A stretch of 64,000 nt of DNA from a virus. The notes below the pieces were generated by a model. It did no database searches. It saw nothing but the letters and a program-made list of their open reading frames with translations, and was not told the DNA's origin. Location: positions 37,524-101,523 of the IMG/VR virus record IMGVR_UViG_3300028610_001072; one strand, written 5' to 3'. Numbering within the stretch: the stretch's first letter is position 1; every line of letters begins with the position of its first letter. Positions 5,125 through 64,000 of the stretch are shown in pieces. Position numbers and translations under genes: made by a program.

Positions 5125-5170
5125 TATACATCCAACATTCCCAGAGCCTACAAACGAGACTGTGTGAACG
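5125..5170 (-). promoter_or_regulatory. Conserved promoter-like repeat, copy 1 (upstream of the recombination/replication operon)
   Basis: Minus strand CGTTCACACAGTCTCGT-TTGTAG-N19(ending ATGTTGGATG)-TATAGG. Matches five copies at 42-51 kb. Confidence 0.75.
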
Positions 5171-37652: not shown

Positions 37653-39269
37653 CTAGGCAGTACCCTTATCCAGTATCGTTTTCACTGTATCATATTCGCG
37701 TGTGCGATATGCATTCTCCGCTGTTGACATTTCGGAAGTCGTGATCTTCCCCGCCTCATTGGCAGTAGTCAAGCTCTTGGTGAGCTCACCGAAGGTTTTC
37801 GGAATACCTTCAGGACGACCAGTGGATGCGGCATTGCCGTCACCGGCACCCTCTTCGCCTAAGCCGAATTGTGAAAGGTCAACTGGTCCACCGGGACGCG
37901 ATTTCAGGATGACCTGAAAAGCTGTGCCTATCGGGACTTTTTTGTCGCCCTCACCGATATAGAGTGATTTCTCGACTATATCAATTTTGGACGCCAAGGT
38001 TTCACGCATTACTTCTACCTCACCCAGAGCCTTTGCCATAGCCTGATCTCTTTCGTGATCATAGGCAACTTTCTGGGTCAGGAGATTGGCTACATCACCA
38101 ACGCTTTTCTGGATGTCCATCAGCATCGGTCCTGCATCCAAGTATTCTTCACCATCTCCGTCACCGGGGATGGTTACAATTTCGTCTGCTTCTTCAAGGC
38201 CGCCACCGTCACCGGCTGGAACGGACTTGAATATACGTTCCCTGATTTCTGACATATTGGTAACAAGGCTCTTCAGTAATGAAGTGGGGGTCTCCGGGCC
38301 ACCACCACCGCCATCGCCGCCGCCATCGCCGCCGCCATCGCCGCCGCCATCGCCGCCGCCATCGCCGCCGCCATCGCCGCCGCCCTCTTCGGGGAACAGG
38401 GATTTTGCGAGCCTGCCCGCAACTTCTTCGTCATGTCCTTCATCGACAAAATGTTGTTTGGCCTGTTCTTCGGTTTCAAAAGTCTTCATCGGTAAACTCC
38501 CGTTTTCAGATTTTTTGAGTTTGTTTTTCTTCCGTGTTTTATCCTTAGAACCGGCTGCCTTAATCTGCTCAGCGGTCTCTTTGATCTCGTCGTCGATATT
38601 TTCCTTGGTAATGGCATCCACTCCAGTTTTCGATGCAAGATCGGTACTGGTTGGTGTGGCCGTCATTGCCTTTTCGACTTCTTCCTTGTAACCCAAGGAT
38701 TTGGCAAATCGTGCATGGTTCTCCTGAAGTGCATGGAGATATACAGATTTATTCACTGGGCTGGGGGTGATTACTACATTGACCACTTTCGCTTTGCGAT
38801 AGCCGCCTTTTTCGACTTTGCCGTCGGTGTAATTGCCTTCAACAGACCAGCCCAAAGTTTTTTGATTGTTGGGAAATTGGCGATTGTGCGTCTCGATGTT
38901 CTGGATCAACTGCCATACATCGTTTGAATATTTTCCGTCCGCGAACAGTGCCCCTTTGATCAGCGTCCCGCCTTCAGGGGTGGTGGCTCGCTCATGGGGA
39001 CACCCAATAATATGAGCCGGGTCATTCGCAACATGCTCATATTTGATCCAGCCCTGATCATCGAAGTATGAGAAATCGAGCGATTTACTGATCAGCCTCT
39101 CTTTGTCCTCATCCTCATTGGAGTTGGTTATCTCTCCCCAGATCAGTCGCCGGGTGATCAGTTTACCGCTGTCATCCGCCACCTTTTCCTTGGCCGAATC
39201 TACGGACTTTTGGAGATTGATCATCCCGTGTAGTATGAAGTCAGGTTGCTGCTGTTGTTCATTACTCAT
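37653..39269 (-). CDS. Prohead protease fused to scaffold
   Basis: DEDKERLISKSLDFSYF...WIKYEH...IIG.P, LGWSVEG, NVVITPSPVN protease motifs, followed by an acidic tail with many xxKS/KA sites. Confidence 0.85.
   Translation of the reverse strand: MSNEQQQQPDFILHGMINLQKSVDSAKEKVADDSGKLITRRLIWGEITNSNEDEDKERLISKSLDFSYFDDQGWIKYEHVANDPAHIIGCPHERATTPEGGTLIKGALFADGKYSNDVWQLIQNIETHNRQFPNNQKTLGWSVEGNYTDGKVEKGGYRKAKVVNVVITPSPVNKSVYLHALQENHARFAKSLGYKEEVEKAMTATPTSTDLASKTGVDAITKENIDDEIKETAEQIKAAGSKDKTRKKNKLKKSENGSLPMKTFETEEQAKQHFVDEGHDEEVAGRLAKSLFPEEGGGDGGGDGGGDGGGDGGGDGGGDGGGGGPETPTSLLKSLVTNMSEIRERIFKSVPAGDGGGLEEADEIVTIPGDGDGEEYLDAGPMLMDIQKSVGDVANLLTQKVAYDHERDQAMAKALGEVEVMRETLASKIDIVEKSLYIGEGDKKVPIGTAFQVILKSRPGGPVDLSQFGLGEEGAGDGNAASTGRPEGIPKTFGELTKSLTTANEAGKITTSEMSTAENAYRTREYDTVKTILDKGTA
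38308..38379. repeat. Perfect 12-bp tandem repeat x6 (CCGCCATCGCCG) encoding (GGGD)6 in the scaffold
   Basis: Seen directly in sequence. Confidence 0.95.
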
Positions 39270-39366
39270 GGTAAAAAAAATGCCCAATCCCCCTGTGGGA
39301 ACTGGGCCTATGACCTTATTACTATGCTTCGCAAATTGAAGCTGTGATGTCCTTGCCTCGGATGAG

Positions 39367-39395
39367 AATGTACTATCCTATATTTGGCAAGTCAA
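39367..39395 (-). promoter_or_regulatory. Sigma70-type promoter of the morphogenesis operon
   Basis: Minus strand TTGACT-17bp-TACATT upstream of the protease gene. Confidence 0.7.
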
Positions 39396-39402
39396 TACTT
39401 CT

Positions 39403-39442
39403 GATGACATTTTTGTCAGGAGCTGATGACAATATTGTCATC
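39403..39442. promoter_or_regulatory. Tandem TGACA-N4-TGTCA palindromes (39405-39418, 39427-39440)
   Basis: The second lies in a perfect 18-bp palindrome GATGACAATATTGTCATC. Spacing is 22 bp, just upstream of the -35 box. Confidence 0.7.
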
Positions 39443-39465
39443 GCGTCGTCTATTGTTTTGGAAAT

Positions 39466-39490
39466 AAAAAAGGCCCCGGATGGGGCCTTT
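39466..39490 (-). terminator. Intrinsic terminator ending the early island
   Basis: AAAGGCCCC-ggat-GGGGCCTTT stem followed by a T-run on the minus strand. Confidence 0.8.
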
Positions 39491-39504
39491 CTATTGCGGT
39501 GGGA

Positions 39505-42257: not shown

Positions 42258-42301
42258 AATACACCCAATATTTTTATCCCTACAAATGAGACTACGTGAA
42301 T
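42258..42301 (-). promoter_or_regulatory. Conserved promoter-like repeat, copy 2 (most diverged)
   Basis: ATTCACGTAGTCTCAT-TTGTAG-N18-TATTGT on the minus strand. Confidence 0.7.
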
Positions 42302-44706: not shown

Positions 44707-44752
44707 CTATACATCCAACATTTCAGTCCCTACAAATGAGACTGTGTGAATG
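44707..44752 (-). promoter_or_regulatory. Conserved promoter-like repeat, copy 3
   Basis: CATTCACACAGTCTCAT-TTGTAG-N18-TATAGT; overlaps the 3' end of the upstream ORF. Confidence 0.8.
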
Positions 44753-46297: not shown

Positions 46298-46375
46298 GGT
46301 GATTCTCCTGTGGTTGTTATCGAAATCTTTCAGGGAAGAGGCGGTGACATTTCTGTCACCGCGCCCTCTATTGTT

Positions 46376-46910: not shown

Positions 46911-46956
46911 CTATACATCCAACATTTGAAAGCCTACAAACGAGACTGTGTGAACG
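46911..46956 (-). promoter_or_regulatory. Conserved promoter-like repeat, copy 4
   Basis: CGTTCACACAGTCTCGT-TTGTAG-N18-TATAGT. Confidence 0.8.
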
Positions 46957-47616: not shown

Positions 47617-48591
47617 CTAAGATGGTCCGGCGGATTCTCCGAAAGCTCCCGCCGGTAGTTCCCATTGTCCTGTACCGATGATCGGCAGATCGTAAGTCAG
47701 TCCCTGTGAAATCTGGACCAACTCAGGATGATCCGCAACCGCTTGGTAAGGTGTTCCTTCAGCCACCATCTCCCGGACAGTTTTCGTCCTGTTGATGGTG
47801 TGCTCGAATTCGTCTTCGTACTGTGCGATCCGCTTCACTTTATCCGGAGCAATCGCGTTGTACGATGCCCACTGGTTAGGTGATCCGAATATGCACGTTG
47901 CACATGACAGCCGTCCCCAGCCAAGACGGTAAGCTGGGTGAGGTATGATGTTGTTCCCCTCGAGGATGTCCCATACCTTTTTTTCCTTCCACTTGTGGAC
48001 TGGCCGCCAGTGGTCAATATGGCGTTTGACTTTGCCATTTCGTAGATCAGCCCTGTCCGGCTCGAAGGTTTTATACTTCGCTCTGGCCGCTGACTCTTCT
48101 GCCCGTTCCCCAGTTACTGCCAAGGTCCGGGAATCTCGGAATCTCTCCTGATTTCTCAATGCCGCCGATGCTGGGTCTATCTTGCAATAGGCACTGCACC
48201 AGCGGGTTTTGAGATCGGCTGCCTGTTGGGGGAACATCCGGCGAGTTGATAACTTGCCACGATCCCCCCCAACAGTACAGCTACCACAGGGAGATTCAAA
48301 TGTGGTGGGTTTTGTGAGCGCATTTTCCCGGAGCATTTCCCCGAGAAATCCGTCCACTTTCCAACTGAAGTAAATCGGTAATCCGAGGGCTTGCGCGAAT
48401 GCTCGGCAATATGCCCCTGTGACCGGCCAATCCATAAAAGTCGGCCCCTGTCCATCAACTAAGTGATGCCAGAGCTCGAGCTTCGACGGATCGACTCCAA
48501 GGTCTAATAGGTGCAGGACCTCAGCGGTGGAATCCTTCCCACCGCTGTACATCGCTACAATCCTGTCGTATGAATTGAGATCGATTTTCAT
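47617..48591 (-). CDS. PAPS reductase family protein
   Basis: YSGGKDS, RWCSAYCKI, GERAEESAARA, HPAYRLGWGRLSCATCIF. Confidence 0.85.
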   Translation of the reverse strand: MKIDLNSYDRIVAMYSGGKDSTAEVLHLLDLGVDPSKLELWHHLVDGQGPTFMDWPVTGAYCRAFAQALGLPIYFSWKVDGFLGEMLRENALTKPTTFESPCGSCTVGGDRGKLSTRRMFPQQAADLKTRWCSAYCKIDPASAALRNQERFRDSRTLAVTGERAEESAARAKYKTFEPDRADLRNGKVKRHIDHWRPVHKWKEKKVWDILEGNNIIPHPAYRLGWGRLSCATCIFGSPNQWASYNAIAPDKVKRIAQYEDEFEHTINRTKTVREMVAEGTPYQAVADHPELVQISQGLTYDLPIIGTGQWELPAGAFGESAGPS

Positions 48592-49404: not shown

Positions 49405-49450
49405 CCATACATCCAACCTCTCAGCATCTACAAATGAGACTGTGTGAACG
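49405..49450 (-). promoter_or_regulatory. Conserved promoter-like repeat, copy 5
   Basis: CGTTCACACAGTCTCAT-TTGTAG-N18-TATGGT; extended identity with copy 6. Confidence 0.8.
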
Positions 49451-51434: not shown

Positions 51435-51479
51435 CATACATCCAACATTTTTTTATCTACAAACGAGACTGAGTGAACG
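51435..51479 (-). promoter_or_regulatory. Conserved promoter-like repeat, copy 6
   Basis: CGTTCACTCAGTCTCGT-TTGTAG-N18-TATGAT. Confidence 0.8.
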
Positions 51480-51545: not shown

Positions 51546-51578
51546 AAAAAGCCCCAGAGATGGGAGGCTCTGGGGCTT
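51546..51578 (-). terminator. Intrinsic terminator after the sigma-like gene
   Basis: AAGCCCCAGAG...CTCTGGGGCTT followed by TTTTT on the minus strand. Confidence 0.8.
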
Positions 51579-51622
51579 GAGGACCTTCCTGCGCTGAAGG
51601 TCCTGTGGTCCGGCTGGAAAAT

Positions 51623-52945
51623 CTACAGGCGGATCGGGATGATCACCCTGATTGACTTCTGCACTAATGCTAGTGCTCGTTTCAAATTTTCTGGCGCACT
51701 GGCATGTTCTAATATCTTTTCGACTCCAGCCTGATAGGTTCGATAGACATCCATCTGGCCGGTGGCTTTTTCCTTGAATGGCGGCGTACCGATGATCCGC
51801 CATTTCTGCCCGCCACGCTCGACAATGAATGACTTCCCTGTCACGTTGACTATTTCAGCACGGATGGGATGCTTATAGCGTTCATTGACATAGGTGGTAT
51901 AGCGTTTCTTTTTAACAGTGCGCCGCCCCCGTTGATCCTTGCCCCGGACAACTCTCGTCACATCCTTGCGAACTTTCTTCATCGGCTTGAACCGGTGGAA
52001 ATCACCTACCGTCTTCCTGACCTTGATTTTTCTAATGCCGCGCTTTTGGTCGAGCAACTTTGCCACAGTCTCGAATGATCGCGGATTCATCCCCCGGCTG
52101 CTTTCCGGCTTATCCACATAGAACCTGAGATACAGGACATCCCGCTCATCCGGGGTCAAGGCTTTCTCTTTTACCAGACTGGTTATTACCCTGTGGGTGG
52201 TCTCCCTGAGTTCCCGCTCCTCAATAGTCCACTTGCTCCAGAAAGCCACATCCTCTTCTTCAATGTGGGGAGTGGTGTCCATGTCATCGGTTAGCTGAGC
52301 GCCTTTGTAACCTTCCAGTGCTTCTATTCGGACAAGTTTTTCTTCCGGGCTTAATTCTACATATTCGCCATCGCGGGTTCGCTTATGCAGGATCACCATG
52401 TCGGCAAGGTCTTCCCGGCTGGGCTTCTCCCCGTTATTGAGCTTCATATATTTTTCAGTGGCACTGGAGATGATTGCCAATTGCCTGATCATATCTCTGG
52501 GGAGCTGGACCCCGCTACCCCGGAGCTTCTTAGCCATGAGCCGCATCCGTTGCTTGGCTCTGGTCTTCATCTGCATAAATTTCAGATCGCCGGTTTTCTT
52601 CGACCTGATTGCTTCCATCCCGCCAATGAGCATTCCCTGCTTGCCCTCAGAGATCAGGTCCGCAACATCTCCCACCGGCTGACCATCGATGAACCTCACA
52701 TCCAGCCCATGCACTCGAGCGATCTCTTTCCCCATGTAAACCAGATAGGCGATATTCTTTTGAATAATCCGCCCCAGTTCCTGCATCTGTGGCATGGTGG
52801 CTTTTAGCCGCATTTTCGGTGTTTTCCGGGCCTGTTTTGGTTTGCCGGTACGAATGTGTGCAGCAACCGGTTTCCCGCTCCTGACGTGCGCCCTGACGTG
52901 CTCAGGCTGGGCTTTTAGGAGTGTGGGGAGTTTAACGCGCTGCAT
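51623..52945 (-). CDS. Sigma-70 family RNA polymerase sigma-factor-like protein with N-terminal basic tag
   Basis: Region 2 DVADLISEGKQGML; VQLPRDM (compare IRIPVHM); region 3 GEKPSREDLADMV; region 4 LTPDERDVLYLRFY...RSFETVAKLL...VYRTYQAGVEKI. Confidence 0.75.
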   Translation of the reverse strand: MQRVKLPTLLKAQPEHVRAHVRSGKPVAAHIRTGKPKQARKTPKMRLKATMPQMQELGRIIQKNIAYLVYMGKEIARVHGLDVRFIDGQPVGDVADLISEGKQGMLIGGMEAIRSKKTGDLKFMQMKTRAKQRMRLMAKKLRGSGVQLPRDMIRQLAIISSATEKYMKLNNGEKPSREDLADMVILHKRTRDGEYVELSPEEKLVRIEALEGYKGAQLTDDMDTTPHIEEEDVAFWSKWTIEERELRETTHRVITSLVKEKALTPDERDVLYLRFYVDKPESSRGMNPRSFETVAKLLDQKRGIRKIKVRKTVGDFHRFKPMKKVRKDVTRVVRGKDQRGRRTVKKKRYTTYVNERYKHPIRAEIVNVTGKSFIVERGGQKWRIIGTPPFKEKATGQMDVYRTYQAGVEKILEHASAPENLKRALALVQKSIRVIIPIRL

Positions 52946-53159
52946 TATTTTTCTTTCTGACCTTCCGTGGCATTTTCACCGCTGGCATTTCCAATTCGGT
53001 CTTGCAATGCGAGCACATGCAAATTACAGCTCCGTTGACCTGATTGATAGTCATCGACTTAACCCGGTAGAACATTCGTTGGGGGTCCTTCGCGTCGGGC
53101 TTGGCAATCTTCAACGTGCAGGTAGGGCATCTACCGTCGGCTGTAAGTTTAACCGCCAT
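52932..53159 (-). CDS. Small zinc-ribbon protein
   Basis: CPTC...CSHC. Confidence 0.6.
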   Translation of the reverse strand: MAVKLTADGRCPTCTLKIAKPDAKDPQRMFYRVKSMTINQVNGAVICMCSHCKTELEMPAVKMPRKVRKKNNAAR

Positions 53160-53451
53160 CCTGCCCTTCATTCTCAATTAATGCAGTATTCAGCTCCGCT
53201 GCATGGTGAAACATCTTCCGCCCACTCACAGCACCGGCGTATTCTTTTTGGAGCTTCTTATTCTCCGGGTTCTTTTCAAGTTGTTTCCCCAGAGTTACCG
53301 CCGCCCGTGCGGTCTGGTCATGTTTGCTGATGGCCTCTCCCCTGAGAGTCTTTAGGTCCTGTATGGCTTCGCTGCGCACTGTATCGCAGGTCTCCATCCG
53401 CTTGAGCAGTTTCGAGGTCATGGTTTTTTGCAGTTTCTCAGGCTTGGACAT
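53149..53451 (-). CDS. Hypothetical helical protein
   Basis: AGGAG RBS; coupled to its neighbours. Confidence 0.55.
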   Translation of the reverse strand: MSKPEKLQKTMTSKLLKRMETCDTVRSEAIQDLKTLRGEAISKHDQTARAAVTLGKQLEKNPENKKLQKEYAGAVSGRKMFHHAAELNTALIENEGQDGG

Positions 53452-56400
53452 GAATTCTCCTATTTATCATAATTCGGGGGGACATCGATTTGGCTACTGG
53501 TTGGGATGCTGCTGCAACTTTCTGCTTCAGGACATTCATATCATCCAACTTCGATCCTTCATGCAGCATATTCATTACCGCTTTCTTTTCGCTTAACCGC
53601 TCCTCGGTAGCCATATCGTGCGGCGTATCGGTTAAGATTATGTGGCCGTGGACATCCTTATTCGCTCCCTTGCGATAGCCGCGACTGAAAAACTGATCCA
53701 TTGTTGACCAGCTGTGAGCACCGGACCCCATCGCTATTGCGGTTGTGGCTCCGTATGGGCGATCCGCTTCCCCAGTGTGCTGGAGATTTAATCCCTCAGT
53801 ACCGGCATCGGTATGGATCGCAAATAATACTTTGGGGTCTTTCAGGTAGGTTTCTTTAGCCTTGGCAATAGCTGCTTGACTTATGGCACGGCCATTCTTA
53901 TCCTGCCCGGCGAATCGCACCATCTTCTTACCCGGGTAGTTCGCCCGGATAAATTTCTCAATCTCATTCACCGTGCTGTAATTTTTCGCATACATCAAGA
54001 CCTTTTCCGTCGCTGCCTTGGTGGCAATATGATCATCGATGATCGATTTCATCTGGGCATATTTAGGATTAGTCTTGTGATCGGAGTCATTCAGAATCCG
54101 GCTGATGTGCTGGTCCCGGCTCATGGGATTGATCCGTCCCTTCAGGTATTTCTTCTGGATTTTCTGATAGTCGGCTTTCTGCTTTGGGGACAGCTCGGCG
54201 GTGTGGGTATTCATATGGAAGTTTGATCCTTCAACCTTTTTCTTTACGGTGAATATCCGGTCATCCAGCTCGGCATTCAGGATGTCTTGTAATTTCTCTT
54301 TCAGACCAGCTCCCTTGTGGAGATTTCGGTACTTCTCCATGAAGGCTTTTTTATTACCATATTTTTCCGGGTCCATGATATTCAGATGGAAATATAGCTC
54401 GCTCAGGTCGTTGGGAGTGGGGGTCCCGGACCCCGTTACATAGTACGGTACTTCCTTGGCGATCTTCGCTAACCCACGGCTCATTTGACTGCCAGTTTCG
54501 GGACCTTTAGTTCCGGCAACATCCCGTTGGGTGATCTTATGCCCCTCATCAGCCACCACCATATCGAAGCCAGCGTCTTTAACCAGATCGTGATCGAAGT
54601 AGAATTTTTCCTTATTCACCAGCACAATATAAGAGGGGTCCGCCTTGTAGGCTTCGGCGCGTTTCGATTTATCGGCGTAATCTACTTGCACCACTTTATA
54701 ATCGGAAAACTTCTCCACTTCCTCAGCGAAATTGGGCATCAACTTTTTAGGCATGGCAATAACTGTTTTCACCGGTTTACCGGTGGTCTCTTCAAGGTGT
54801 GCTTTCTGAAGGAGATACGCCAGCGATTTCCCGGTTCCCGCCTCGAAATTCAAATAGACCTTTTTCTGGAGTCCGATAAATCGGGCGGCGGCCTGTTGCT
54901 CGGGTGTCGGTATGATCTTGGTCATGGTGCCATCGGCATTTTCGATATAGGGCTTGATGCCGGTGGGTAGCCAGTCCTGCTCATTTTCACGGAGACTCTT
55001 AATGCTCTGGGGACTCGGCTCCCTTCCTAGTTCCTTGAATTGAGCCACGACTTTTTCATTGATTAGTTTTTCGTATGCCTTCGCTTTGATGATCATCGTA
55101 TAATCGCCGTGGCCGTGGCGCTCGATGTTGACATCACCCTTATTTAATCCCAGTTTATCGATCTTGGCATTTAATGCCTGTCGATTCGAGCTCTTGATTG
55201 TCAGGTCCTTTTTGTGGCTCTGAAATTGGTACAGGAGCTCGGCGGCCATGTGCAGACCACCTTCGGCTTGACCATACGCGAGGTATGCCCGATTTACATA
55301 AGCCAGCTTGGCGGCTGATCCCTGCTGACGGGTAGCGAATAGCATATCCTTGCCCTTGGCAAATTTCGTGACGTGCTGCGCTCGCTCGAGATACTTATCA
55401 CCTTTATTGACGGCATCGAGGGCAATCTCATTACCCTTGTCCTCAATGTATTTCTGATAGCGGCCAACCGATCCGGCGTAATCCTCTTCCCCTAGAGTAT
55501 TCCGTAGATAGTAGTCTGCCAGTATGGCGGCGTTAGCTGCGCCAAGTTCATTCATAAAGTCTTCATTGATGATACTGGTGCCAGCCATTTCGCCGGTGAT
55601 GCCGTTGATGGCTTCGATTGATCCCTGAGCGATCATCTTATCCATATCCTTCCGCTCAGCACCTTTGCTCTCAATTTCCTTACCATTCTGATCGATCCCG
55701 CCACGGGTGTTGACAATCAGGGTATAGTGAGCGGCAATCTCATCCCGCAATGCTTTCTCATCCTCGACCATCCGCATTAGGTCCGCACTGGTAATATCAG
55801 AGACTCCTACAATGTCTGAGCCAGCGTGTGTTACCATGCCGGTACGGAGCTGCTTATTAATGACCTTCAACTCCCGCTCATGCCCCTTGATGGCATAATG
55901 GGCTTTCAGGAATTCTTCTGCATTCTCCCGGATCACCTGAGCAATACGTTTCTTCTCGGCATCGTGCTGGTCATCGATACCAACCTCATCCCCCAACATG
56001 ACCTTTTTGGCATCCTCGATGATGCTATTCAATGCCCGGCGGCGTTCATTGGCAATCTTGTTGATTTCCTTCAGTCGCTCCCCCCGCTGCTCGGGCTTGG
56101 ACATCTTCTCAATTCTTTTCTCGATGGCCGCCCGTTCCTTGGCAGTGACTTCAGTTTCGACGCCAGCTTTTTCCCGAACCATTTCATGTAGTTTCCCCTT
56201 GGCCTCAGTGCGCTTCGCACCTACCTCTTCCTTGCGAGTTGCGAGTTTTTCAACATCTTCTTCGGCCATCTCTTCCCGGCGTTTCGCACGGGCGTCTTCC
56301 TTCGCCTGTTTGGATTTTTCCCGTGCCAGCTTGGCCTCTTCGGTGTCAGCCTCTTTTTTCTTCGGCTGTAGGATTTTGTGGGTGAGACCTGATTGCTCTG

Positions 56401-57145
56401 GTGCCCAGACTATTGAGGCGGTCCCGTTGGCATGAGGCATTATCAGGATATGGCGGCCATGTAGAGGACTGCTGGCATCCGTGATCGTAACCCAGCGAGC
56501 ACCGGGATGCTGGCGCATGATATTTGCACTCCAGCTCTTTTCCATCTCCTGCGGATTTCCGTGCCGCCCAGCTTTTACCCTGTATTTCTTTTTCGATTTG
56601 GGATGCGTGAGATAGAACTCACCCCCCTTACAAGTATGATCCTTGTGCATCGAATAGTAGCAGCCCTTCCGCATAATCGATGATCCCCGAGCCACCAATA
56701 GAGGGCCGACTTTATTGAGATTGAGGTTTGCTGTTCTGCCCTTTTGTAGATCGGGGACCATTGAGATCGACTTCCCAAAATTCTTTAGTTTCTCCTGATA
56801 GATACCGGCGGCTTTCTTCCAGAATGCCTTATACTCATCCTTGGCCCATTTCGGAGCCATGGCACTGTCATATACTGACCACTGCTGCATCGACTGTTCG
56901 CTACCGTTCATGTGTGGCTTCAGCCAGATAAACGATGATCCCACCATCTTGGCGCTCTGCTGGGCCAGTGCCAATTTCTTCTGCAACTCCTGCTTGGTTT
57001 CACAGGCATTCGCCCATTTGCGGTGAGCACTGATACCGGTATTCATGGCCGCCTGTCGGACCTGTTGCGCTGCCCGGTTATAGGATGATACCCGGATCAT
57101 CAATCCTGATCTCAGCTTACGTGCATGTCCTTTGACTTGACTCAT
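53438..57145 (-). CDS. Large protein with C-terminal SNF2/SWI2-like helicase
   Basis: FEAGTGKS, VADEGHKI, GSGTPTPNDLSELY, DAGTEGLNLQ, DQFFSRGYRKG. Confidence 0.85.
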   Translation of the reverse strand: MSQVKGHARKLRSGLMIRVSSYNRAAQQVRQAAMNTGISAHRKWANACETKQELQKKLALAQQSAKMVGSSFIWLKPHMNGSEQSMQQWSVYDSAMAPKWAKDEYKAFWKKAAGIYQEKLKNFGKSISMVPDLQKGRTANLNLNKVGPLLVARGSSIMRKGCYYSMHKDHTCKGGEFYLTHPKSKKKYRVKAGRHGNPQEMEKSWSANIMRQHPGARWVTITDASSPLHGRHILIMPHANGTASIVWAPEQSGLTHKILQPKKKEADTEEAKLAREKSKQAKEDARAKRREEMAEEDVEKLATRKEEVGAKRTEAKGKLHEMVREKAGVETEVTAKERAAIEKRIEKMSKPEQRGERLKEINKIANERRRALNSIIEDAKKVMLGDEVGIDDQHDAEKKRIAQVIRENAEEFLKAHYAIKGHERELKVINKQLRTGMVTHAGSDIVGVSDITSADLMRMVEDEKALRDEIAAHYTLIVNTRGGIDQNGKEIESKGAERKDMDKMIAQGSIEAINGITGEMAGTSIINEDFMNELGAANAAILADYYLRNTLGEEDYAGSVGRYQKYIEDKGNEIALDAVNKGDKYLERAQHVTKFAKGKDMLFATRQQGSAAKLAYVNRAYLAYGQAEGGLHMAAELLYQFQSHKKDLTIKSSNRQALNAKIDKLGLNKGDVNIERHGHGDYTMIIKAKAYEKLINEKVVAQFKELGREPSPQSIKSLRENEQDWLPTGIKPYIENADGTMTKIIPTPEQQAAARFIGLQKKVYLNFEAGTGKSLAYLLQKAHLEETTGKPVKTVIAMPKKLMPNFAEEVEKFSDYKVVQVDYADKSKRAEAYKADPSYIVLVNKEKFYFDHDLVKDAGFDMVVADEGHKITQRDVAGTKGPETGSQMSRGLAKIAKEVPYYVTGSGTPTPNDLSELYFHLNIMDPEKYGNKKAFMEKYRNLHKGAGLKEKLQDILNAELDDRIFTVKKKVEGSNFHMNTHTAELSPKQKADYQKIQKKYLKGRINPMSRDQHISRILNDSDHKTNPKYAQMKSIIDDHIATKAATEKVLMYAKNYSTVNEIEKFIRANYPGKKMVRFAGQDKNGRAISQAAIAKAKETYLKDPKVLFAIHTDAGTEGLNLQHTGEADRPYGATTAIAMGSGAHSWSTMDQFFSRGYRKGANKDVHGHIILTDTPHDMATEERLSEKKAVMNMLHEGSKLDDMNVLKQKVAAASQPVAKSMSPRIMINRRIHVQA

Positions 57146-58305
57146 GCTGCGGCTCCAACTTTAATTATGGTCTCCAATGATTTGCGAGCTTTCCGGCGGC
57201 GGCGTTTCCCCTTAATCCCCTTGGCATTCAGGTAGCCGTCAATGGTGCCGCCACTCTCGAAAAACTTCTGAGCGAATTGCATTTCCCGGTCCAGTTTCTT
57301 CATCTCTTCATTGATGAGAGCCACCTTGCGGGCAGTGACGGCCAGCTTGCCTTTTTCCTTCGCTAGTGCAGGAATGATCTTCGCGCCGTTCTTTTCGCTT
57401 ACTCGATCCATTAGGCTTCCGAAGTCATCCAGTAATTTCCCAAGGTCGCGCTCCAGTGAATTCCTGCGCTGCTTTGTGATCCGCTGGCCGATGGTGTTAC
57501 CCTCGATGCTAAATAGCCCGGTCTGGGTCTGTGAACTTTGATAGCGGCCAACCATCCCCCGTAACGCTTCAGTGGAGATTTTTCCCATATTCAGCCGCTT
57601 GATAATATTCTGCTGGTAAGCTGGTTTAAGGTTTGCGGTGGATATGATTTCCGCCCGGCGTACTGTCATTGAGCCATGCCTCACCATCTCCTGCAACTGG
57701 GGGATCAGGCTCAGGAATGATATGCGCCGCTCAACCGTCACTTTGGATGTGCCAACCGCCTCAGCTATATCGTCCGCCGTTGCGCCGGTGTCAACCAACT
57801 TTTGATAGGCTGTGGCCTCTTCCATCGGATTCATTTCCTCACGGCCAACATTCTCCGCCACCTGAATCTCAGCAATTTCTTTCTCGTCGGTAATGTGATA
57901 AACCTTCGCATTGGCGATTTCAACCCCTGCGATCTGCATGGCTCTCCAGCGCCGCTCCCCTGCGATCAGCATGTAGTCGCCTTTAAGGTCCGGGTGTGGC
58001 CGGATTACAATATCCTGTAGTAGTCCTATTTTTTTAATACTGGCGGCCAGCTCCTTCAATTTGCCTTCATCGAAGTGCTCCCGTGGCTGGGTAGGATCGC
58101 GGTGGATCGCGCCAACCGGCACCTGAGCCTTACTGGTTTTCGCCTCGACCTTGACAAGCTGCTTCCCGCCGAAAAGGTCCTCTGGATATTCGTACTGGTA
58201 ATGGCCGGGCGCACCGATTCGCTTGGTGTATTTATGACCGGGCTTCATTGTGCCGGTAGCACTCTTCCTGAGTCTCGACTTGATTAAGATTTGAACGCCT
58301 TCCAT
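57142..58305 (-). CDS. ParB/Spo0J-like protein with N-terminal extension
   Basis: QPREHFDEGKLKELAASIKKIGLLQDIVIR...LIAGERRWRA...ENVGREEMNPMEEA followed by an HTH. Confidence 0.9.
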   Translation of the reverse strand: MEGVQILIKSRLRKSATGTMKPGHKYTKRIGAPGHYQYEYPEDLFGGKQLVKVEAKTSKAQVPVGAIHRDPTQPREHFDEGKLKELAASIKKIGLLQDIVIRPHPDLKGDYMLIAGERRWRAMQIAGVEIANAKVYHITDEKEIAEIQVAENVGREEMNPMEEATAYQKLVDTGATADDIAEAVGTSKVTVERRISFLSLIPQLQEMVRHGSMTVRRAEIISTANLKPAYQQNIIKRLNMGKISTEALRGMVGRYQSSQTQTGLFSIEGNTIGQRITKQRRNSLERDLGKLLDDFGSLMDRVSEKNGAKIIPALAKEKGKLAVTARKVALINEEMKKLDREMQFAQKFFESGGTIDGYLNAKGIKGKRRRRKARKSLETIIKVGAAA

Positions 58306-58571
58306 AATTCCTTCAGTATATATCCCAGTCCTGTTAATGCCAGCAGCGCAGTGCCGCTATCTTTTGCCATATTCGTAACTACTTGCGTAACCGTCTTGAC
58401 TTCATCGGCGGCCACATGAATTGCATCCGGCATAAATACTCTGACCGTGATAATCGCGCCTGCCAACATAACCCCAACGGTTATATGTTGCCGGTGTTTC
58501 TTGATAGCAGCCAGCTTTGCAGCCTCTCGTTTTTTAGCCCGCTCACGCTTGGCTTTGGTTGACAATTTCAT
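58284..58571 (-). CDS. Hypothetical membrane protein
   Basis: Basic N-terminus and two hydrophobic segments. Confidence 0.55.
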   Translation of the reverse strand: MKLSTKAKRERAKKREAAKLAAIKKHRQHITVGVMLAGAIITVRVFMPDAIHVAADEVKTVTQVVTNMAKDSGTALLALTGLGYILKELWKAFKS

Positions 58572-60274
58572 CGTGCGCCTGCTTTGGTCCTGCCCATAAT
58601 TATTATGGATTTCTGGACTCCGGTATAGGTCATACCCCGAGCACTGTAATAGCCCTGCCCTGTCTCGAATACTGCATCGAGTAACTGGTATCCTGATGGT
58701 TTGAAATATTTCTCAGCCGTTTCTCGATAGGCGTGTGCATCTCGGGCGCTGGGATGTGATCCCACCGTGATGCAATTCACGGACCCTGTATCGAGCATGT
58801 GCTTCATTAGGGCCTTGCTGTACTTCGTCTGGGTGGCACTGAGATTCAGGTGATTATCTCCCAGTAGAAAAAATCCCGTGACATTATTCTGCCCGTTTAG
58901 GGTGATCCCCCAGACCCCCTTCCCATGCTCGGCTTGTATCCATTTCCCTAACCGAGCAGCGTCTTGGGCTGAAGTGACCGCCATATCTGGCATACCTGAA
59001 GGAGCTGATTCTCGGCTTGTCACCTTGATTTCGGAAATGGGATGCTCAACCCAGCTACGTTTTTGCGTTGGGACGTAATCGTCTTTAGCCCTGTCAATGT
59101 ATGGCTCAAATGTGGTGAAGGTTAGCTTGCCACCATGAATGATAACATCGCCCTGATGTTCAATCCCGAATTTCTTGGCGAAGGCTTTTATCCTGTCAGT
59201 GATGGCATAGTCGTCCCGTGAGGGATTAGGGCTGCCTGATGGGTGATTGTGAATTCCCCAATACTTCTTTGCCTTATTGGCTCTCAATACGCTGAGGATC
59301 ACCCGTGGATCAACTGTTGAATCGGTTATGCCGCCCATGCTATGCAGTTCGACTGATATGAGTTTATCATCCTTATCCGTGCCAACTACCCAGTATTTTT
59401 CCCGTGCGTCATCCCGCATACTTTTAAATATCGCGGCTATATCTCCAGCCTTCGTGATCTTGGTTCCCGGTACTTTAATTGACCCGGTTGGCATGGCTCC
59501 GACTTTTACGAAGGACATTCCCTTGATTTTACGGGACTTACCTTTTTTGGTCCGGCTGTCCTGATGCTCACGGACAGTTGTAATCTTACCAGATTTCGTG
59601 TGCCGGAGATGGGTTTTAATCTTGGCCTTGATCATCTGGGGCTTATTCGCCGTCGCCAGTACCTTCGGCTTGAACTTATCGAAGGTCATGGTGGTGCAGC
59701 TCATAAACATATCGCGGCGGTCATAATTCTTTAGATAATCCTCAATGGCCTGCTCTCTCGATCTCCAGCCCAACATGCACTTGTCTTCATCATACTTGCC
59801 GGTTTTCACATTCCTTTGATGGATCACGTACACCTTTGGAGCATTCGGCTCGGGACCCATAAAGCAGTCTACATGATCTTTATCAACTCCAGTAGTCCCC
59901 CGGATGTAGCCATAATCGAAATGGAGCAGGCTTCGCCATTCGTTCCCGTCGGGGTCTTTCCCAGTTCGATAGGTCCCGGCGGGATTCTCTATGGAAATTT
60001 TCAGACCCCTGAAAGTCAGACGTTTGCGGATAGGATGCCCGCTCCATGTTTTCGACTTCAGTAAAATTTGGGGGATAGGCGGAATACGGTTATCACCCCG
60101 CACCCCGTCCCTATCCCCTCCGCCCTTGGAAGCACTCACACTCAAAGCTTTTTCCAGTTGTCCAGATATAATCAGATCATGGACATCCGGCACTCCAGCT
60201 AAGGGGACGCCTAAATAGACATCCCCCTCTGCACTCAGGCAGAACCGGTCGCCGTTTGGGGTAGAATTATTCAC
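58568..60274 (-). CDS. Polyvalent protein: inorganic-pyrophosphatase-like domain plus RadC-like JAB domain(s)
   Basis: ISIENPAGTYRTG...DYGYIRGTTGVDKDHVDCFMGP...YDEDKCMLG; REKYWVV...HNHPSGSPNPSRDD; second degenerate JAB (GSHPS). Confidence 0.85.
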   Translation of the reverse strand: MNNSTPNGDRFCLSAEGDVYLGVPLAGVPDVHDLIISGQLEKALSVSASKGGGDRDGVRGDNRIPPIPQILLKSKTWSGHPIRKRLTFRGLKISIENPAGTYRTGKDPDGNEWRSLLHFDYGYIRGTTGVDKDHVDCFMGPEPNAPKVYVIHQRNVKTGKYDEDKCMLGWRSREQAIEDYLKNYDRRDMFMSCTTMTFDKFKPKVLATANKPQMIKAKIKTHLRHTKSGKITTVREHQDSRTKKGKSRKIKGMSFVKVGAMPTGSIKVPGTKITKAGDIAAIFKSMRDDAREKYWVVGTDKDDKLISVELHSMGGITDSTVDPRVILSVLRANKAKKYWGIHNHPSGSPNPSRDDYAITDRIKAFAKKFGIEHQGDVIIHGGKLTFTTFEPYIDRAKDDYVPTQKRSWVEHPISEIKVTSRESAPSGMPDMAVTSAQDAARLGKWIQAEHGKGVWGITLNGQNNVTGFFLLGDNHLNLSATQTKYSKALMKHMLDTGSVNCITVGSHPSARDAHAYRETAEKYFKPSGYQLLDAVFETGQGYYSARGMTYTGVQKSIIIMGRTKAGAR

Positions 60275-62964
60275 TACAGCCCGTACTCATGGAGATCATA
60301 CTCCGACAGTTTGTACTTCTTTTTCGGGTCCAGATTCCGGGCGATCCTATCCAGCTTCTCGATCCTCTGGCGTAGGTTGCGAAGCCTGTACGGCTCTACG
60401 GGTGGCTTCGCGTCTGTCTCCACAGATGCCGCCATGTCGGGTGCCATTTCATTATTATCGGTTGGCGTCGGCTTTAGCCCGGCCCGCCATTCAGCTAACC
60501 CTCGCAGGAGATCGCCCTGACATTCACCAATTTTGCAGCGTGTGGCAAATATAATATCCTTCCCGCTCTTCGTGAATTCGAGAGACTTGGAAAGCTTGCC
60601 AACCTCGACCGCTTTTTGAAGGACTGGATATTGATTCATGTCGATGGATTTCTTTGCGGGCTGTTTCCGAGCGGCTTCAATCATAGCTGCTTCTTTGGCG
60701 GCAGCCCTTTCAGGATTCTTTTTTCGATCTGCCTTGGTCGGGAGACCTGCATCGGCCCTATGCCCCTCCCATTTGCTTTCATGGTGAGCCGACCTTTCAT
60801 AGTGATGTTCATATTTGGATGAACCTTTTTTATGCCTTTTTAGCCGCTCGTCGTGATGCTCCATTCTGGCTTTATGGTGCTCAGCCATCTCTACAAAATG
60901 ATGTGTCCCCCCGTATTGATGGGCTGACACGAATCCACGCTGACCCGGTTTCCGAGTCTTTTGATGTTCCCGGACGGTTGTAATCGTTCCTGATTTGGTC
61001 CGGCGCTGATGTTGCTTGACTGTCCCGACTGCTTTTTGCAGTAGGGGGTATTTATCGAGATCATTCATTGTTCCGCTCTCCATTGATTTCTTAGCTGATG
61101 TGTATGCCGCTCTGAATTCCTTGAGTCCAAGATAGCCCTCTGTTTGTGCTGGAGTTAAGCCAAATTCTTCCCCCTTCTTATGGAGATTGGTGAGCGTATC
61201 CGCAGCACCTTTTTTGTTACCAGCCTTGAATTGCTGGATGTACTCATTGGCCCATTTTCGCATTCCTACCCTATCCTCGAGGGGGATTTTATTTTCCTGT
61301 CCTCGGTGCTGGGTTTGATGTTCCCGGACGGTTGTGATCTTCCCTGATTTGGTCCGGCGTTGATGCTGCTTGACCGTGCCGACTGCCTTTGCCAGCAGGG
61401 GGTAATTTTCGAGGCCATTCATATCTGACTCCATTGACTTCGTGAATCGGGGTGTGCCATGCTTCTTTTTTAGCAGCTCGAATGCCAGATCGGATACCTT
61501 ATAGATATTGAATCCATCGCCGGTTGTATCGGTTTTTTTAATACCCCGGCCTTTCAATTCGATATTGGTCGTGAGATAAATCGATCCATAATGACCGTAT
61601 TCATAGTCCCATACTCCGGGACGATCACCGGTGTACTTTTTCTTGTATTCGGATTCCATGTTATCAATTCTGGTCTGGAGTAGTTTTCTCTTCCCAGATT
61701 CTTTATCACCGATCCGGTTCCGTTTTTCCTTCAGGCTATTGATAGCCTTTCTGGCTGTGAGCTGCTGGGCAGCTTTTTGGGATTCAGCGTGACCAATATC
61801 CGCTTTTTCTCGGGCTGTTATTAGCGCCTTATCTTTGCGCCGTTGCTCGTCATGGGTTAAGGATTCTCCCGTATTATTATACTGAAATTCCCCGTGCTGC
61901 TGCTGTATCTTTTTAAGTGCTGCCTCGGTGACACTATAGGTTTTCAGCCCGAGCCGGTGATCACTGCCATCCCCTGACTGTCTGATTCCCCGCCCTTTAA
62001 GGTCCAAGTGTGTTGTGACGTAGTAGTCTCCCCCGTGGGATACTTTATATTCCCGGACCTGTGCCGGTTTCCCTGTGAATGGCTTCAAGTCGGATTCCTT
62101 GGGCAGTGCTTCTCTCAGAAAGTGGCTCCGTTGATTAACATAGTGCTTCGCCTCAGCGTTGGTCATCTTGCCGGTGTATTTGAAATGATCTATTATTTCG
62201 GCGTCTGATGAGCTCTCGTCATTGGATAGGACGGACGCAATCCATTGACGTTTCAGGCCATCTTTTTGCTTCTTAGTCCGGCTATCGGTGTGCTCCCGGA
62301 CAGTGCCAGTTTTACCGCTTTTGTAATGACGGATGTGCGCTACAACCTTGCCCTTCCGCAATAACATCATTGCTTTGCCCATAGTCCCCAGACTGGTAGC
62401 CATTCCGGTGTGCATCTCAATGACATCCGTGAGCATATCGTTATAGATACCCTTGGCGTCAGTGACCTTTTTGTACGTTGGTCCTTTGGTGATCCGTCCA
62501 AATTCCACATCGTAGGTATCCACCGCATTTAGGGTGATCCTGATCATGTGGATGCTGCTGGAGTTCCGGCCAATCCTGAATTGGAGATAGGCATCGCCGT
62601 TCTCATGGGTCCCGGCTCCGTAGCCTTTGGCACCGATCATGTACAGGGCTTGCCTACCAATTTGCTTCTGGATAGTGTGAGCCACAGCCAGCGCATATTT
62701 ATTATCGGCGGCTCGCCTCTTCTGGCGGCTGTCTTCATGCTCCCTGACATTGACCACCTTACCCGCTTGGCGGCGCTGGTGAGCCTTAACATGAGCTTTG
62801 AGTAATATGGGTTGCATGGCTTTCTTCCCCTTCATCTGTTGGTAGATGCCCATCGTGTAAGCATAGAATTCGTCGGAGCCTTCGGATTTCGTTTTCCGGG
62901 CAATTCCCTTCGCCTTATTCCACAGGTGCTCATCACGTTCGTTTTTGACGACGTTGGTTGGCAT
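60274..62964 (-). CDS. Modular polyprotein, probable internal head protein
   Basis: Four copies of the V..H.R...GK...VREH tag, each preceded by LxK[A/G], separating unrelated small domains. Confidence 0.75.
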   Translation of the reverse strand: MPTNVVKNERDEHLWNKAKGIARKTKSEGSDEFYAYTMGIYQQMKGKKAMQPILLKAHVKAHQRRQAGKVVNVREHEDSRQKRRAADNKYALAVAHTIQKQIGRQALYMIGAKGYGAGTHENGDAYLQFRIGRNSSSIHMIRITLNAVDTYDVEFGRITKGPTYKKVTDAKGIYNDMLTDVIEMHTGMATSLGTMGKAMMLLRKGKVVAHIRHYKSGKTGTVREHTDSRTKKQKDGLKRQWIASVLSNDESSSDAEIIDHFKYTGKMTNAEAKHYVNQRSHFLREALPKESDLKPFTGKPAQVREYKVSHGGDYYVTTHLDLKGRGIRQSGDGSDHRLGLKTYSVTEAALKKIQQQHGEFQYNNTGESLTHDEQRRKDKALITAREKADIGHAESQKAAQQLTARKAINSLKEKRNRIGDKESGKRKLLQTRIDNMESEYKKKYTGDRPGVWDYEYGHYGSIYLTTNIELKGRGIKKTDTTGDGFNIYKVSDLAFELLKKKHGTPRFTKSMESDMNGLENYPLLAKAVGTVKQHQRRTKSGKITTVREHQTQHRGQENKIPLEDRVGMRKWANEYIQQFKAGNKKGAADTLTNLHKKGEEFGLTPAQTEGYLGLKEFRAAYTSAKKSMESGTMNDLDKYPLLQKAVGTVKQHQRRTKSGTITTVREHQKTRKPGQRGFVSAHQYGGTHHFVEMAEHHKARMEHHDERLKRHKKGSSKYEHHYERSAHHESKWEGHRADAGLPTKADRKKNPERAAAKEAAMIEAARKQPAKKSIDMNQYPVLQKAVEVGKLSKSLEFTKSGKDIIFATRCKIGECQGDLLRGLAEWRAGLKPTPTDNNEMAPDMAASVETDAKPPVEPYRLRNLRQRIEKLDRIARNLDPKKKYKLSEYDLHEYGL
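60960..61404. repeat. ~90-bp imperfect direct repeat (60960-61050 and 61314-61404) encoding YPLL.KAVGTVKQHQRRTKSG.ITTVREHQ
   Basis: Seen at DNA and protein level; the differences are mostly synonymous. Confidence 0.9.
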
Positions 62965-63507: not shown

Positions 63508-63878
63508 TATTCAGCCTCTCCCTTCCGCACCATTTTCTTGAACTGTTTTTCGCGCTTCCCAGTGAGTGTAGCGCGATCTTTTTCAGCGGCCTTGGTTTTA
63601 ATCTGCTCCTCTACCTCACGGAGAGCTCGCTCCTGCTGCCGCATTTCAATATTGCGGAGTTCGGCTTCGAGATCATTGATCTTAACCTTTTCGGCCTCGA
63701 TCTTCCATTGGGCGAACCAGCGGGTGAGAATCCAACTACCGTTGATAATATTCTCATAGGCCCGGATTGTTAGGATGTGAGAGGATGTAGCTGATGTTAG
63801 GGTATTGACCGCCTGAGTGAGCTTATCACATCGCAGGTGCAATTCCTTGAATTCTAATATCTGCTGTGCATCATTCAT
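63507..63878 (-). CDS. Hypothetical coiled-coil protein
   Basis: Coupled ORF. Confidence 0.55.
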   Translation of the reverse strand: MNDAQQILEFKELHLRCDKLTQAVNTLTSATSSHILTIRAYENIINGSWILTRWFAQWKIEAEKVKINDLEAELRNIEMRQQERALREVEEQIKTKAAEKDRATLTGKREKQFKKMVRKGEAE

Positions 63879-64000
63879 GCTGGGACCTCAAACTTTTCCA
63901 GTAATGTATTGATGGTGTCGCGCAGTCGGGTAAGTTCCTCACGATCTTGGATTGCCGATACATCAGCACCTTTCCCAAGGAATAGGGCCGGGAAAATAAT

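Follow-up and report, generated by a model that had tools for sequence, protein, structure and literature searches.

To our knowledge, all characterised phage sigma factors (SPO1 gp28 and gp34, T4 gp55) act within one infection cycle, in which they switch the host polymerase to later genes; they are post-infection products of early or middle genes and lack a cargo tag. In T4, the internal proteins and Alt are directed to the head by a capsid targeting sequence, cleaved by gp21 and injected, and Alt then ADP-ribosylates the host polymerase. Polyvalent proteins are predicted to be packaged and injected (PMC5512222); the word "sigma" occurs nowhere in that paper, and full-text literature searches returned no report of a virion-packaged sigma factor. 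Here we describe a candidate for such a protein, encoded by an open reading frame (ORF) at 51623–52945 (minus strand) of a 64,000-nt stretch (hereafter, the window) that comprises bases 37524–101523 of virus record IMGVR_UViG_3300028610_001072, which is complete at 101,523 bp and derives from a subsurface metagenome. Positions marked "genome" follow the numbering of the full record and all others that of the window; every gene of this phage is encoded on the minus strand. An initial annotation had read the ORF as a sigma-70-like factor that carries a cargo tag and is possibly made late, packaged and injected to serve the early promoters.

The ORF, whose position was confirmed, encodes a protein of 440 aa (50.8 kDa, pI 10.3; stop codon at 51623–51625), and it is the only sigma-like gene of the genome. 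Its sole Pfam match was Sigma70_r4, whose 16.3 bits fall short of the cut-off (24.1), with sub-threshold matches to the same family in 9 of its 19 homologues; Sigma70_r2 and Sigma70_r3 had no Pfam match in the ORF or in any of these homologues. Neither the protein nor its family profile retrieved a sigma factor from the PDB by sequence, only noise such as bL17, and PHROGs held no family for it. A tblastn search of 50,697 phage records with the protein gave no match, and no cultured relative emerged. When an AlphaFold model (19-sequence alignment, pLDDT 74) was searched with Foldseek, almost all of the 48 PDB rows listed were sigma factors (E from 3.6e-4, most with probability 1.00; global TM-scores low, about 0.2–0.3). 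The top rows from a viral structure library searched in the same way were dominated by annotated phage sigma factors, and a protein atlas listed sigma clusters both by features and by structure. Structural alignment with VIA paired residues 50–217 with residues 4–139 of sigma-28 (Z 9.4), residues 50–219 with residues 177–315 of Thermus thermophilus sigma-A (139 aa at 4.1 Å), and residues 55–142 with sigma-2 of SigE (74 aa at 2.4 Å, Z 8.0). Profile alignment of the 19-member family against Escherichia coli RpoD, RpoS, FliA and RpoH (hhalign) gave E 5.3e-5 over 196 collinear columns, with residues 55–299 collinear with residues 376–582 of sigma-70, that is, regions 2.1–4.2.

The C-terminal half was also folded separately (pLDDT 81) and compared exhaustively with 48,161 PDB representatives using VIA. 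All 12 of the top matches were sigma-4 domains; that of SigF superposed over 57/57 residues at 1.6 Å, across residues 14–181 of the model, and domain 4 of SigW over 53/53 residues at 2.0 Å. Foldseek with this half only found no significant match. Taken together, these comparisons bear out the sigma regions 2, 3 and 4 that had been recognised in the initial annotation, and they place sigma-2 at residues 51–145 (52511–52795), sigma-3 at residues 146–220 (52286–52510; LPRDMIRQLAIISSATEKYMKLNNGEKPSREDLADM), and sigma-4 in two parts. The first part, residues 241–304 (52034–52225), holds the region 4.1 helices and helix one of the helix-turn-helix (HTH), and the second, residues 395–430 (51656–51763), holds the putative recognition helix (397–413), the last helix and the VQK end, all on the minus strand. 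We conclude that the ORF almost certainly encodes a real sigma-70-family homologue with a group-3-like region 2-3-4 layout.

Both ends of the protein carry short elements outside the sigma fold. The leader, residues 1–11 (MQRVKLPTLLK; 52913–52945, minus strand), ends in a putative cleavage motif, LLK↓A (the arrow marks the predicted cut), after which the protein continues with HVRAHVRSGKPVAAHIR. A basic tag region follows at residues 12–50 (52796–52912, minus strand; net charge +10), which is modelled as a beta-meander and contains V-R-x-H-x-R-x-G-K-x-V-x-x-H-x-R. At the other end, LALVQK↓SIRVIIPIRL, an invariant K430-S431 is followed by the hydrophobic tail at residues 431–440 (SIRVIIPIRL; 51626–51655, minus strand). 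All 19 homologues, the most distant at 39% identity, retain both ends, with V17, H20, G24, R32, K430 and S431 invariant, and the end motifs were also conserved in operon mates of the relatives L003–L009 and L017.

The same elements recur in the genes that precede sigma, all on the minus strand. An 896-aa polyprotein (60274–62964, pI 9.8) has three to four copies of the leader and tag in repeated cassettes, each running K↓S, linker, PxLxK↓A, tag; more fully, a K↓S site is followed by a 13–18-residue linker, (Y/Q)P(L/I/V)LxK↓A and V(G)TVKQHQRRTKSGKITTVREH. One copy lies inside a protein with inorganic-pyrophosphatase-type (InPase) and RadC/JAB domains (58568–60274, pI 9.6; internal MIK↓A plus tag, VQK↓S tail). 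A protein with a ParB N-terminal domain and an HTH (57142–58305, pI 9.8) has a LIK↓S leader and an RK↓S tail, and a 1235-aa SNF2 helicase (53438–57145, pI 9.5) has one N-terminal tag and a VAK↓S tail. The tags that open the SNF2 protein and sigma are degenerate forms, and K-S plus a hydrophobic tail closes the InPase-RadC, ParB, SNF2 and sigma proteins alike, so that the likeness of sigma to its neighbours described in the initial annotation holds at both ends. Two further genes before sigma encode untagged proteins, a 100-aa helical protein conserved in close relatives (53149–53451) and an 81-aa CxxC...CxxC protein (52932–53177), the last 14 nt of whose gene overlap the start of sigma. The latter gene precedes sigma in every relative, and this untagged zinc-ribbon protein, whose translation is coupled to that of sigma, may act as a chaperone or as an anti-sigma factor.

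Neither the leader and tag nor the K-S tail was found in any other plausible gene of the 101-kb genome, and Pfam has no family that describes the basic tag. A tblastn search with one tag cassette gave a weak match only, to the cultured Bacteroides phage BS162P1 (OP172706.1). In that phage, two adjoining small proteins (L016:7445–7780 and 7787–8482) both start with MKKEK(T/Q)(I/V)K(T/S)YQRRTK(T/S)GK.VTV(R/K)AH, which is the same basic tag.

The end motifs have counterparts in the proteins that build the head. We counted the motif [LIVMF]-x-K-[SA] against shuffled sequences. The prohead protease fused to a scaffold (37653–39287, minus strand) contains 14 sites where 1.3 were expected, a number that none of 500 shuffles reached, and the scaffolds of L009 and L017 are as rich in them. 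The major capsid protein (36005–37597, minus strand) has two sites only, at residues 16–19 and 33–36, in an N-terminal propeptide; both are confined to the first 36 residues, immediately ahead of the stretch alignable to the capsid proteins of other phages, and occupy identical positions in L009 and L017. The tail proteins and other large proteins have zero to four sites, which is the chance level. Sigma has exactly two, at residues 9–12 and 428–431, at its ends, and internal sites in its 19 homologues numbered 7 where 23 were expected, a depletion whose independence is overstated by the relatedness of the homologues. These counts suggest that the prohead protease would cut after the lysine of the motif, with sigma among its substrates.

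Sigma closes a long head and cargo unit with the order TerS-TerL-portal-MuF-[tag polyprotein, InPase-RadC, ParB, SNF2]-Zn ribbon-sigma. Genome 8860–435 holds TerS, the portal, a MuF-like minor head protein and a putative TerL, recognised from its size and place; past the junction of the map come three small genes, then the tag polyprotein, the InPase-RadC, ParB and SNF2 proteins, the 100-aa and 81-aa proteins, and sigma last. One terminator lies before TerS and another after sigma, and no strong minus-strand terminator was found in between, only two weak sites; promoter-like matches between TerS and the sigma terminator were not in excess of chance. The intrinsic terminator that closes the unit (51549–51578, minus strand) has an 11-bp stem with 7 G-C pairs and is followed by the first promoter module, in agreement with the initial annotation, which had placed sigma as the last gene of the cargo operon ahead of these two elements. 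Between the stop codon of sigma and the terminator (51579–51622) there is a second hairpin, GGACCTTC...GAAGGTCC. Upstream of TerS (genome 8861–8961) stands a strong terminator, then TTGCAC-17-TAATAT with a TGTTGG element in the spacer; this promoter-like site resembles the -10-proximal part of the promoter modules described below and may be the promoter of the entire head/cargo/sigma unit.

This arrangement recurs in metagenomic relatives. Portal, MuF, cargo and sigma stand on single contigs in L007 and L009. The cargo set is variable (L009 has no ParB, RadC or helicase); what stays fixed is its end, always formed by the zinc-ribbon gene and sigma. In L017 (32% G+C) the order is an LPD1 protein, SNF2, InPase-SNF2, an 89-aa protein, the zinc ribbon and the sigma cassette, followed by two small genes, the protease-scaffold and the capsid protein, so that sigma lies inside the head module. 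Relative to L017, the 9 kb of promoter-headed operons that follow sigma in the phage studied here look like an insertion.

A profile search of 1.84 billion representatives with the sigma family returned only 25 proteins at E <1e-3, some of which fuse sigma to other domains. The 1782-aa P0041 has sigma regions 2–4 at residues 155–460 and a C-terminal SNF2 helicase, ends in VKK↓SMVLYVLGRGK, and aligned with the E. coli sigma factors at E 5.1e-7 and 92% probability over 232 columns (hhalign). P0032, P0037 and P0046 open with LLIK↓A and a tag, continue with sigma and LLEK↓S and, after a linker, carry YILK↓S, another tag and a second domain. Tags also accumulate in P0035 (1165 aa; InPase plus ADP-ribosyltransferase, five tags) and in P0040 (1692 aa; six tags and a weak GNAT match). 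The fusions in P0041, P0032, P0037 and P0046 thus make sigma one interchangeable module of a tagged polyprotein system. Domains of the polyvalent type are found throughout this set, namely InPase, RadC/JAB, ParB and SNF2 in the phage itself, LPD1 in L017 and ADP-ribosyltransferase (ART) in P0035. In virions of the Thermus Lalka phages, which encode no sigma and whose capsid protein is distantly related to that of this phage, a helicase and a DarB homologue have been found by mass spectrometry. SNF2 recurs next to sigma, an adjacency that, by analogy, hints at a RapA-like partnership on the polymerase.

Charge sets the cargo proteins apart as well. Sigma has a net charge of +42 at pI 10.3, where E. 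coli RpoD, RpoS, FliA and RpoH have pI values of 4.7–5.6. Among the 29 ORFs of at least 300 aa in the genome, only five cargo-operon proteins exceed pI 9 (9.5–10.3), and the rest range from 4.2 to 8.8. Such extreme values fit proteins that share the head with DNA.

Because sigma closes the TerS-TerL-portal-MuF-cargo unit, stands in L017 between polyvalent-type genes and those for protease and capsid, is bracketed by the motif of the scaffold and the capsid propeptide, shares an extreme pI with its operon mates and is fused in relatives, we consider it probable that it is made late and packaged, as virion cargo cut by the prohead protease; to this extent the sequence features support the initial annotation. 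Its delivery and action on the host polymerase at the start of infection have about even odds. Overall, the best explanation is that the ORF encodes a derived sigma-70-family protein serving as one cassette of the virion cargo system of this clade, to which we assign a probability of about 0.5. From the computed fold, domain order, end motifs, synteny, motif statistics, charge and fusions, we infer cleavage, encapsidation, ejection, core binding and the promoters used as follows. Sigma would be made late, as the final product of the terminase-portal-MuF-cargo unit, and would enter the prohead along with the other very basic cargo proteins. Cuts by the prohead protease behind residue 11 (PTLLK↓A) and residue 430 (VQK↓S) would then leave a basic core of ~48 kDa, which would stay with the DNA in the head and enter the next host with it. 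There, the conserved region 2.2 would bind host core RNA polymerase and bias the first transcription toward phage DNA. By analogy with pro-sigma-E and pro-sigma-K, the end peptides may keep the precursor inactive in the late cell. In a bolder form, which we rate as less likely than not, the clade would deliver a virion pro-sigma, produced late in an inactive, tagged state, trimmed at both ends and carried as a DNA-borne polycation, which converts the host core before any phage expression; the domain inserted in its sigma-4 (see below) would read extra promoter DNA, the tag and K↓(S/A) cassette would be a general loading system with which these phages could package any enzyme, and sigma would be a new polyvalent domain.

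Several points weigh against the packaged and delivered sigma. Location in a head module is no proof of encapsidation, and the high pI might simply reflect DNA binding. The specificity of the protease is drawn from motif statistics alone, and since literature searches on a lysine-specific prohead protease motif and on the HK97 cleavage site gave nothing usable, the K↓(S/A) reading stands without a published specificity.

Further points concern the sigma domains themselves. The core-binding motif of region 2.2 is retained (ADLISEGK against LDLIQEGN in sigma-70; hhalign), with D96, L97 and G101 invariant in the 19 homologues and E100 conserved in at least 90%. In contrast, the alignment places M, M, R and a 4-residue gap opposite the sigma-70 residues of -10 melting, Y425, F427, Y430, W433 and W434, which capture the flipped bases of the -10 element, so that these aromatics are absent; the equivalents of R436 and Q437 are retained as K131 and Q132. 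Regions 2.3 and 2.4 consist of an invariant basic helix, QMKTRAKQRMR, and M126, K127, R129, A130, K131 and Q132 as well as the sigma-4 recognition helix were invariant or nearly so in the homologues. Because region 2.3 has no equivalents of the five aromatics, canonical promoter melting by this sigma is doubtful.

In the turn of the sigma-4 HTH, residues 305–394 (51764–52033, minus strand) form a predicted SH3/Tudor-like beta barrel with a net charge of +23. The barrel, of ~85 residues (308–392), separates HTH helix one (291–302) from the recognition helix (397–413), is bridged by the sigma-4 alignments, and matched Tudor and SH3 structures at Z 5.3–5.9. Since the more distant relatives P0028, P0032, P0037 and P0041 have an uninterrupted sigma-4, the insertion appears specific to the clade of this phage; the split domain comes from AlphaFold models built on only 19 sequences, another point on the unfavourable side.

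The promoters speak against the last part of the initial annotation. The first module (51436–51477, minus strand) reads TTCACnnAGTCTCnTTTGTAG-N11-TTGGATGTAT, and the form TTCACnnAGTCTCnTTTGTAG-N11/12-TTGGATGTAT has exactly six copies in the complete genome, the other five at 49407–49448, 46913–46954, 44709–44750, 42259–42300 and 5126–5168. Five modules head consecutive units of ~2–2.8 kb of small non-structural genes, from 51.4 to 39.5 kb (a terminator was checked after only two of these five units, at about 42.3 kb and about 39.5 kb), and the sixth, at 5126, stands in front of genes for recombination and replication; because of these gene contents, it is plausible that the modules drive early genes. 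All six, however, carry sigma-70-like boxes (TTGTAG, an 18-bp spacer and TATAGT), and the promoter after sigma in L017 is a perfect TTGACA-17-TATATT. Host sigma could serve all these promoters; since it may suffice, an injected sigma is without demonstrated need. It is unlikely that the phage sigma directs or is required for the six modules, because a sigma without the canonical -10-reading residues poorly suits TATAAT-like boxes. The proposal of a sigma for the early promoters is thus unsupported, unlike that of a late, packaged product, as the modules and the L017 promoter are sigma-70-like and the residues for TATAAT reading and melting are missing.

In relatives, a TTGG(A/T)(T/G)GTA-type -10 is kept and the -35 drifts (TCTGTAC in L005 and L007, TCTGTAT in L009). 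Across relatives, changes in the recognition helix of sigma seem to go with changes in the -35 part of the module, a pattern that is suggestive but comes from too few promoters to be relied on. Upstream of the protease and capsid genes, the interval 39288–39504 holds a terminator and then a canonical TTGACT-17-TACATT promoter preceded by two palindromes, ATGACAATATTGTCAT and TGACAAAAATGTCA; a similar GTGACAGAAATGTCAC lies at 46298–46375. This promoter looks like an operator-controlled late type, unlike the six modules.

Of the alternatives, an ordinary, non-packaged phage sigma survives best, although we judge it improbable. It would switch the polymerase to a later gene class in the same cycle, and its ends would be polyprotein relics or turnover sites. 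All characterised phage sigmas (SPO1 gp28/gp34, T4 gp55) act so, this is the only sigma-like gene of the genome, and the TTGCAC-17-TAATAT site with its TTGG element before TerS means that sigma could feed back on its own unit. Expression of such a factor would depend on the long head/cargo transcript or on an internal promoter that escaped detection. Being encoded at the far end of the packaging and head unit, however, it would come after the genes it might activate. Moreover, the end motifs are under selection, being invariant down to 39% identity with internal copies depleted, the pI of 10.3 is unlike that of any cellular sigma tested, and fusions to SNF2 and tagged cassettes make little sense for a factor that cycles on and off the polymerase.

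The loss of the region 2.3 aromatics and of one helical turn, while the core-binding DLIxEG is kept, points to another candidate role, one we rate as still less probable: the protein may be packaged and injected without being a promoter-specific initiator, acting as a decoy that occupies core polymerase and shuts off the host, or as a head protein that condenses or escorts DNA. Its extreme charge and the +23 insertion would suit this role, as would its link to SNF2 helicases, among which RapA recycles the polymerase (PMC7824862). Against it, the near-invariance of the recognition helix in sigma-4 and of the basic helix in region 2.4 points to specific DNA reading. Extracytoplasmic function (ECF) sigma factors, too, open promoters without the tryptophan dyad. 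That the protein is no sigma relative at all, with a chance helical-bundle match and coincidental end motifs, would agree with the absence of a Pfam match above the gathering score, the PDB sequence search without sigma and the global TM-scores of about 0.2–0.3, but is very improbable given that Foldseek, VIA, hhalign and the protein atlas agree on a collinear region 2-3-4 order, that single domains superpose at 1.6–2.4 Å, and that the more canonical P0041 matches the E. coli sigmas along 232 columns at 92% probability.

As to the genome as a whole, the capsid protein, the protease-scaffold fusion and a tail sheath identify the phage as a myovirus, whose capsid protein is only 23–29% identical to its counterparts in FelixO1-like, SPO1-like and Thermus Lalka phages. 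A 144-bp "direct terminal repeat" (genome 1–144 = 101380–101523; window 63857–64000) lies inside coding sequence, where the stop codon of the ORF at genome 19–426 abuts the start of the next ORF and two neighbouring genes are joined seamlessly. Because of this position, the map is most likely effectively circular or permuted, and the "ends" of the record would be an assembly overlap with no physical end. Pfam RNA_pol (T7-type polymerase) had no match in the genome, in a search that had no positive control and is uninformative. No RNA run was listed as containing the sequence, and the single DNA run that was is probably the source sample. Among the promoter-module operons, a PAPS-reductase-like protein (47617–48591; Pfam PF01507) may be a DNA- or nucleotide-modifying enzyme. 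A lookalike of a tRNA T-arm and acceptor end, GGTTCGACTCCCCC, lies at genome 5607–5712 in the gap upstream of the putative large terminase gene. The sequence ATAGGG[GA] occurs 3–14 nt (mostly 5–9) upstream of many start codons (the coding strand of the whole genome has 44 copies, the opposite strand 21; for example at window 35939 and 23625, and genome 20717, 4881 and 438), and other genes use GGAG. As a late-promoter motif read by sigma it was rejected, given its Shine-Dalgarno-like spacing 3–14 nt before starts, and a second type of Shine-Dalgarno sequence seems the better reading.

Compared with known phage sigmas (SPO1 gp28/gp34, T4 gp55, and the SigF/FliA-like factors of Bacillus phages, Vibrio phages and cyanophages), the protein shares the homologous sigma-2/3/4 architecture but differs in lying in the head module, in its pI of 10.3, in the missing region 2.3 aromatics and in the barrel inside the sigma-4 HTH. 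We know of no phage sigma with an insertion in sigma-4, and if the model is right, this HTH tolerates an entire inserted domain. Pro-sigma-E and pro-sigma-K of Bacillus subtilis sporulation, precursors matured by removal of a short terminal peptide, offer an analogy only, since neither the pro-sequences nor the proteases are homologous and activation by cleavage is here a supposition. Polyvalent proteins (Iyer et al. 2017, PMC5512222) take the same place beside portal and MuF and have the same companion domains, and the relatives that fuse sigma into multidomain proteins of 557–1782 aa come closest to them. In this phage, in contrast, the domains are mostly separate genes or cassettes, bracketed by hydrophobic-x-K↓(S/A) with the basic tag in front. 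If the proposed packaging is correct, sigma joins the list of polyvalent-protein domains, and the short tag-and-cut signal might be exploited to bring foreign proteins into capsids.

The T4 internal proteins and Alt resemble this sigma in their short N-terminal leader ending in a presumed prohead-protease motif, in being basic and in their location in the head (here predicted), and Alt also in the proposed effect on the host polymerase as soon as infection begins. In T4, the motif reads L/I-x-E↓ rather than hydrophobic-x-K↓(S/A), the phage sigma has an additional C-terminal site and tail, and Alt modifies the polymerase whereas sigma would become one of its subunits. Virion RNA polymerases (N4 vRNAP, the multisubunit vRNAP of phiKZ and AR9, those of crAss-like phages) answer the same problem, the delivery of transcription competence with the genome, by bringing a catalytic enzyme that is independent of the host; the phage sigma would bring the specificity subunit only, and transcription would stay rifampicin-sensitive. 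Beside whole polymerases (N4, phiKZ, crAss-like) and T4 Alt, delivery of a specificity subunit only would, if true, be a third and minimal solution.

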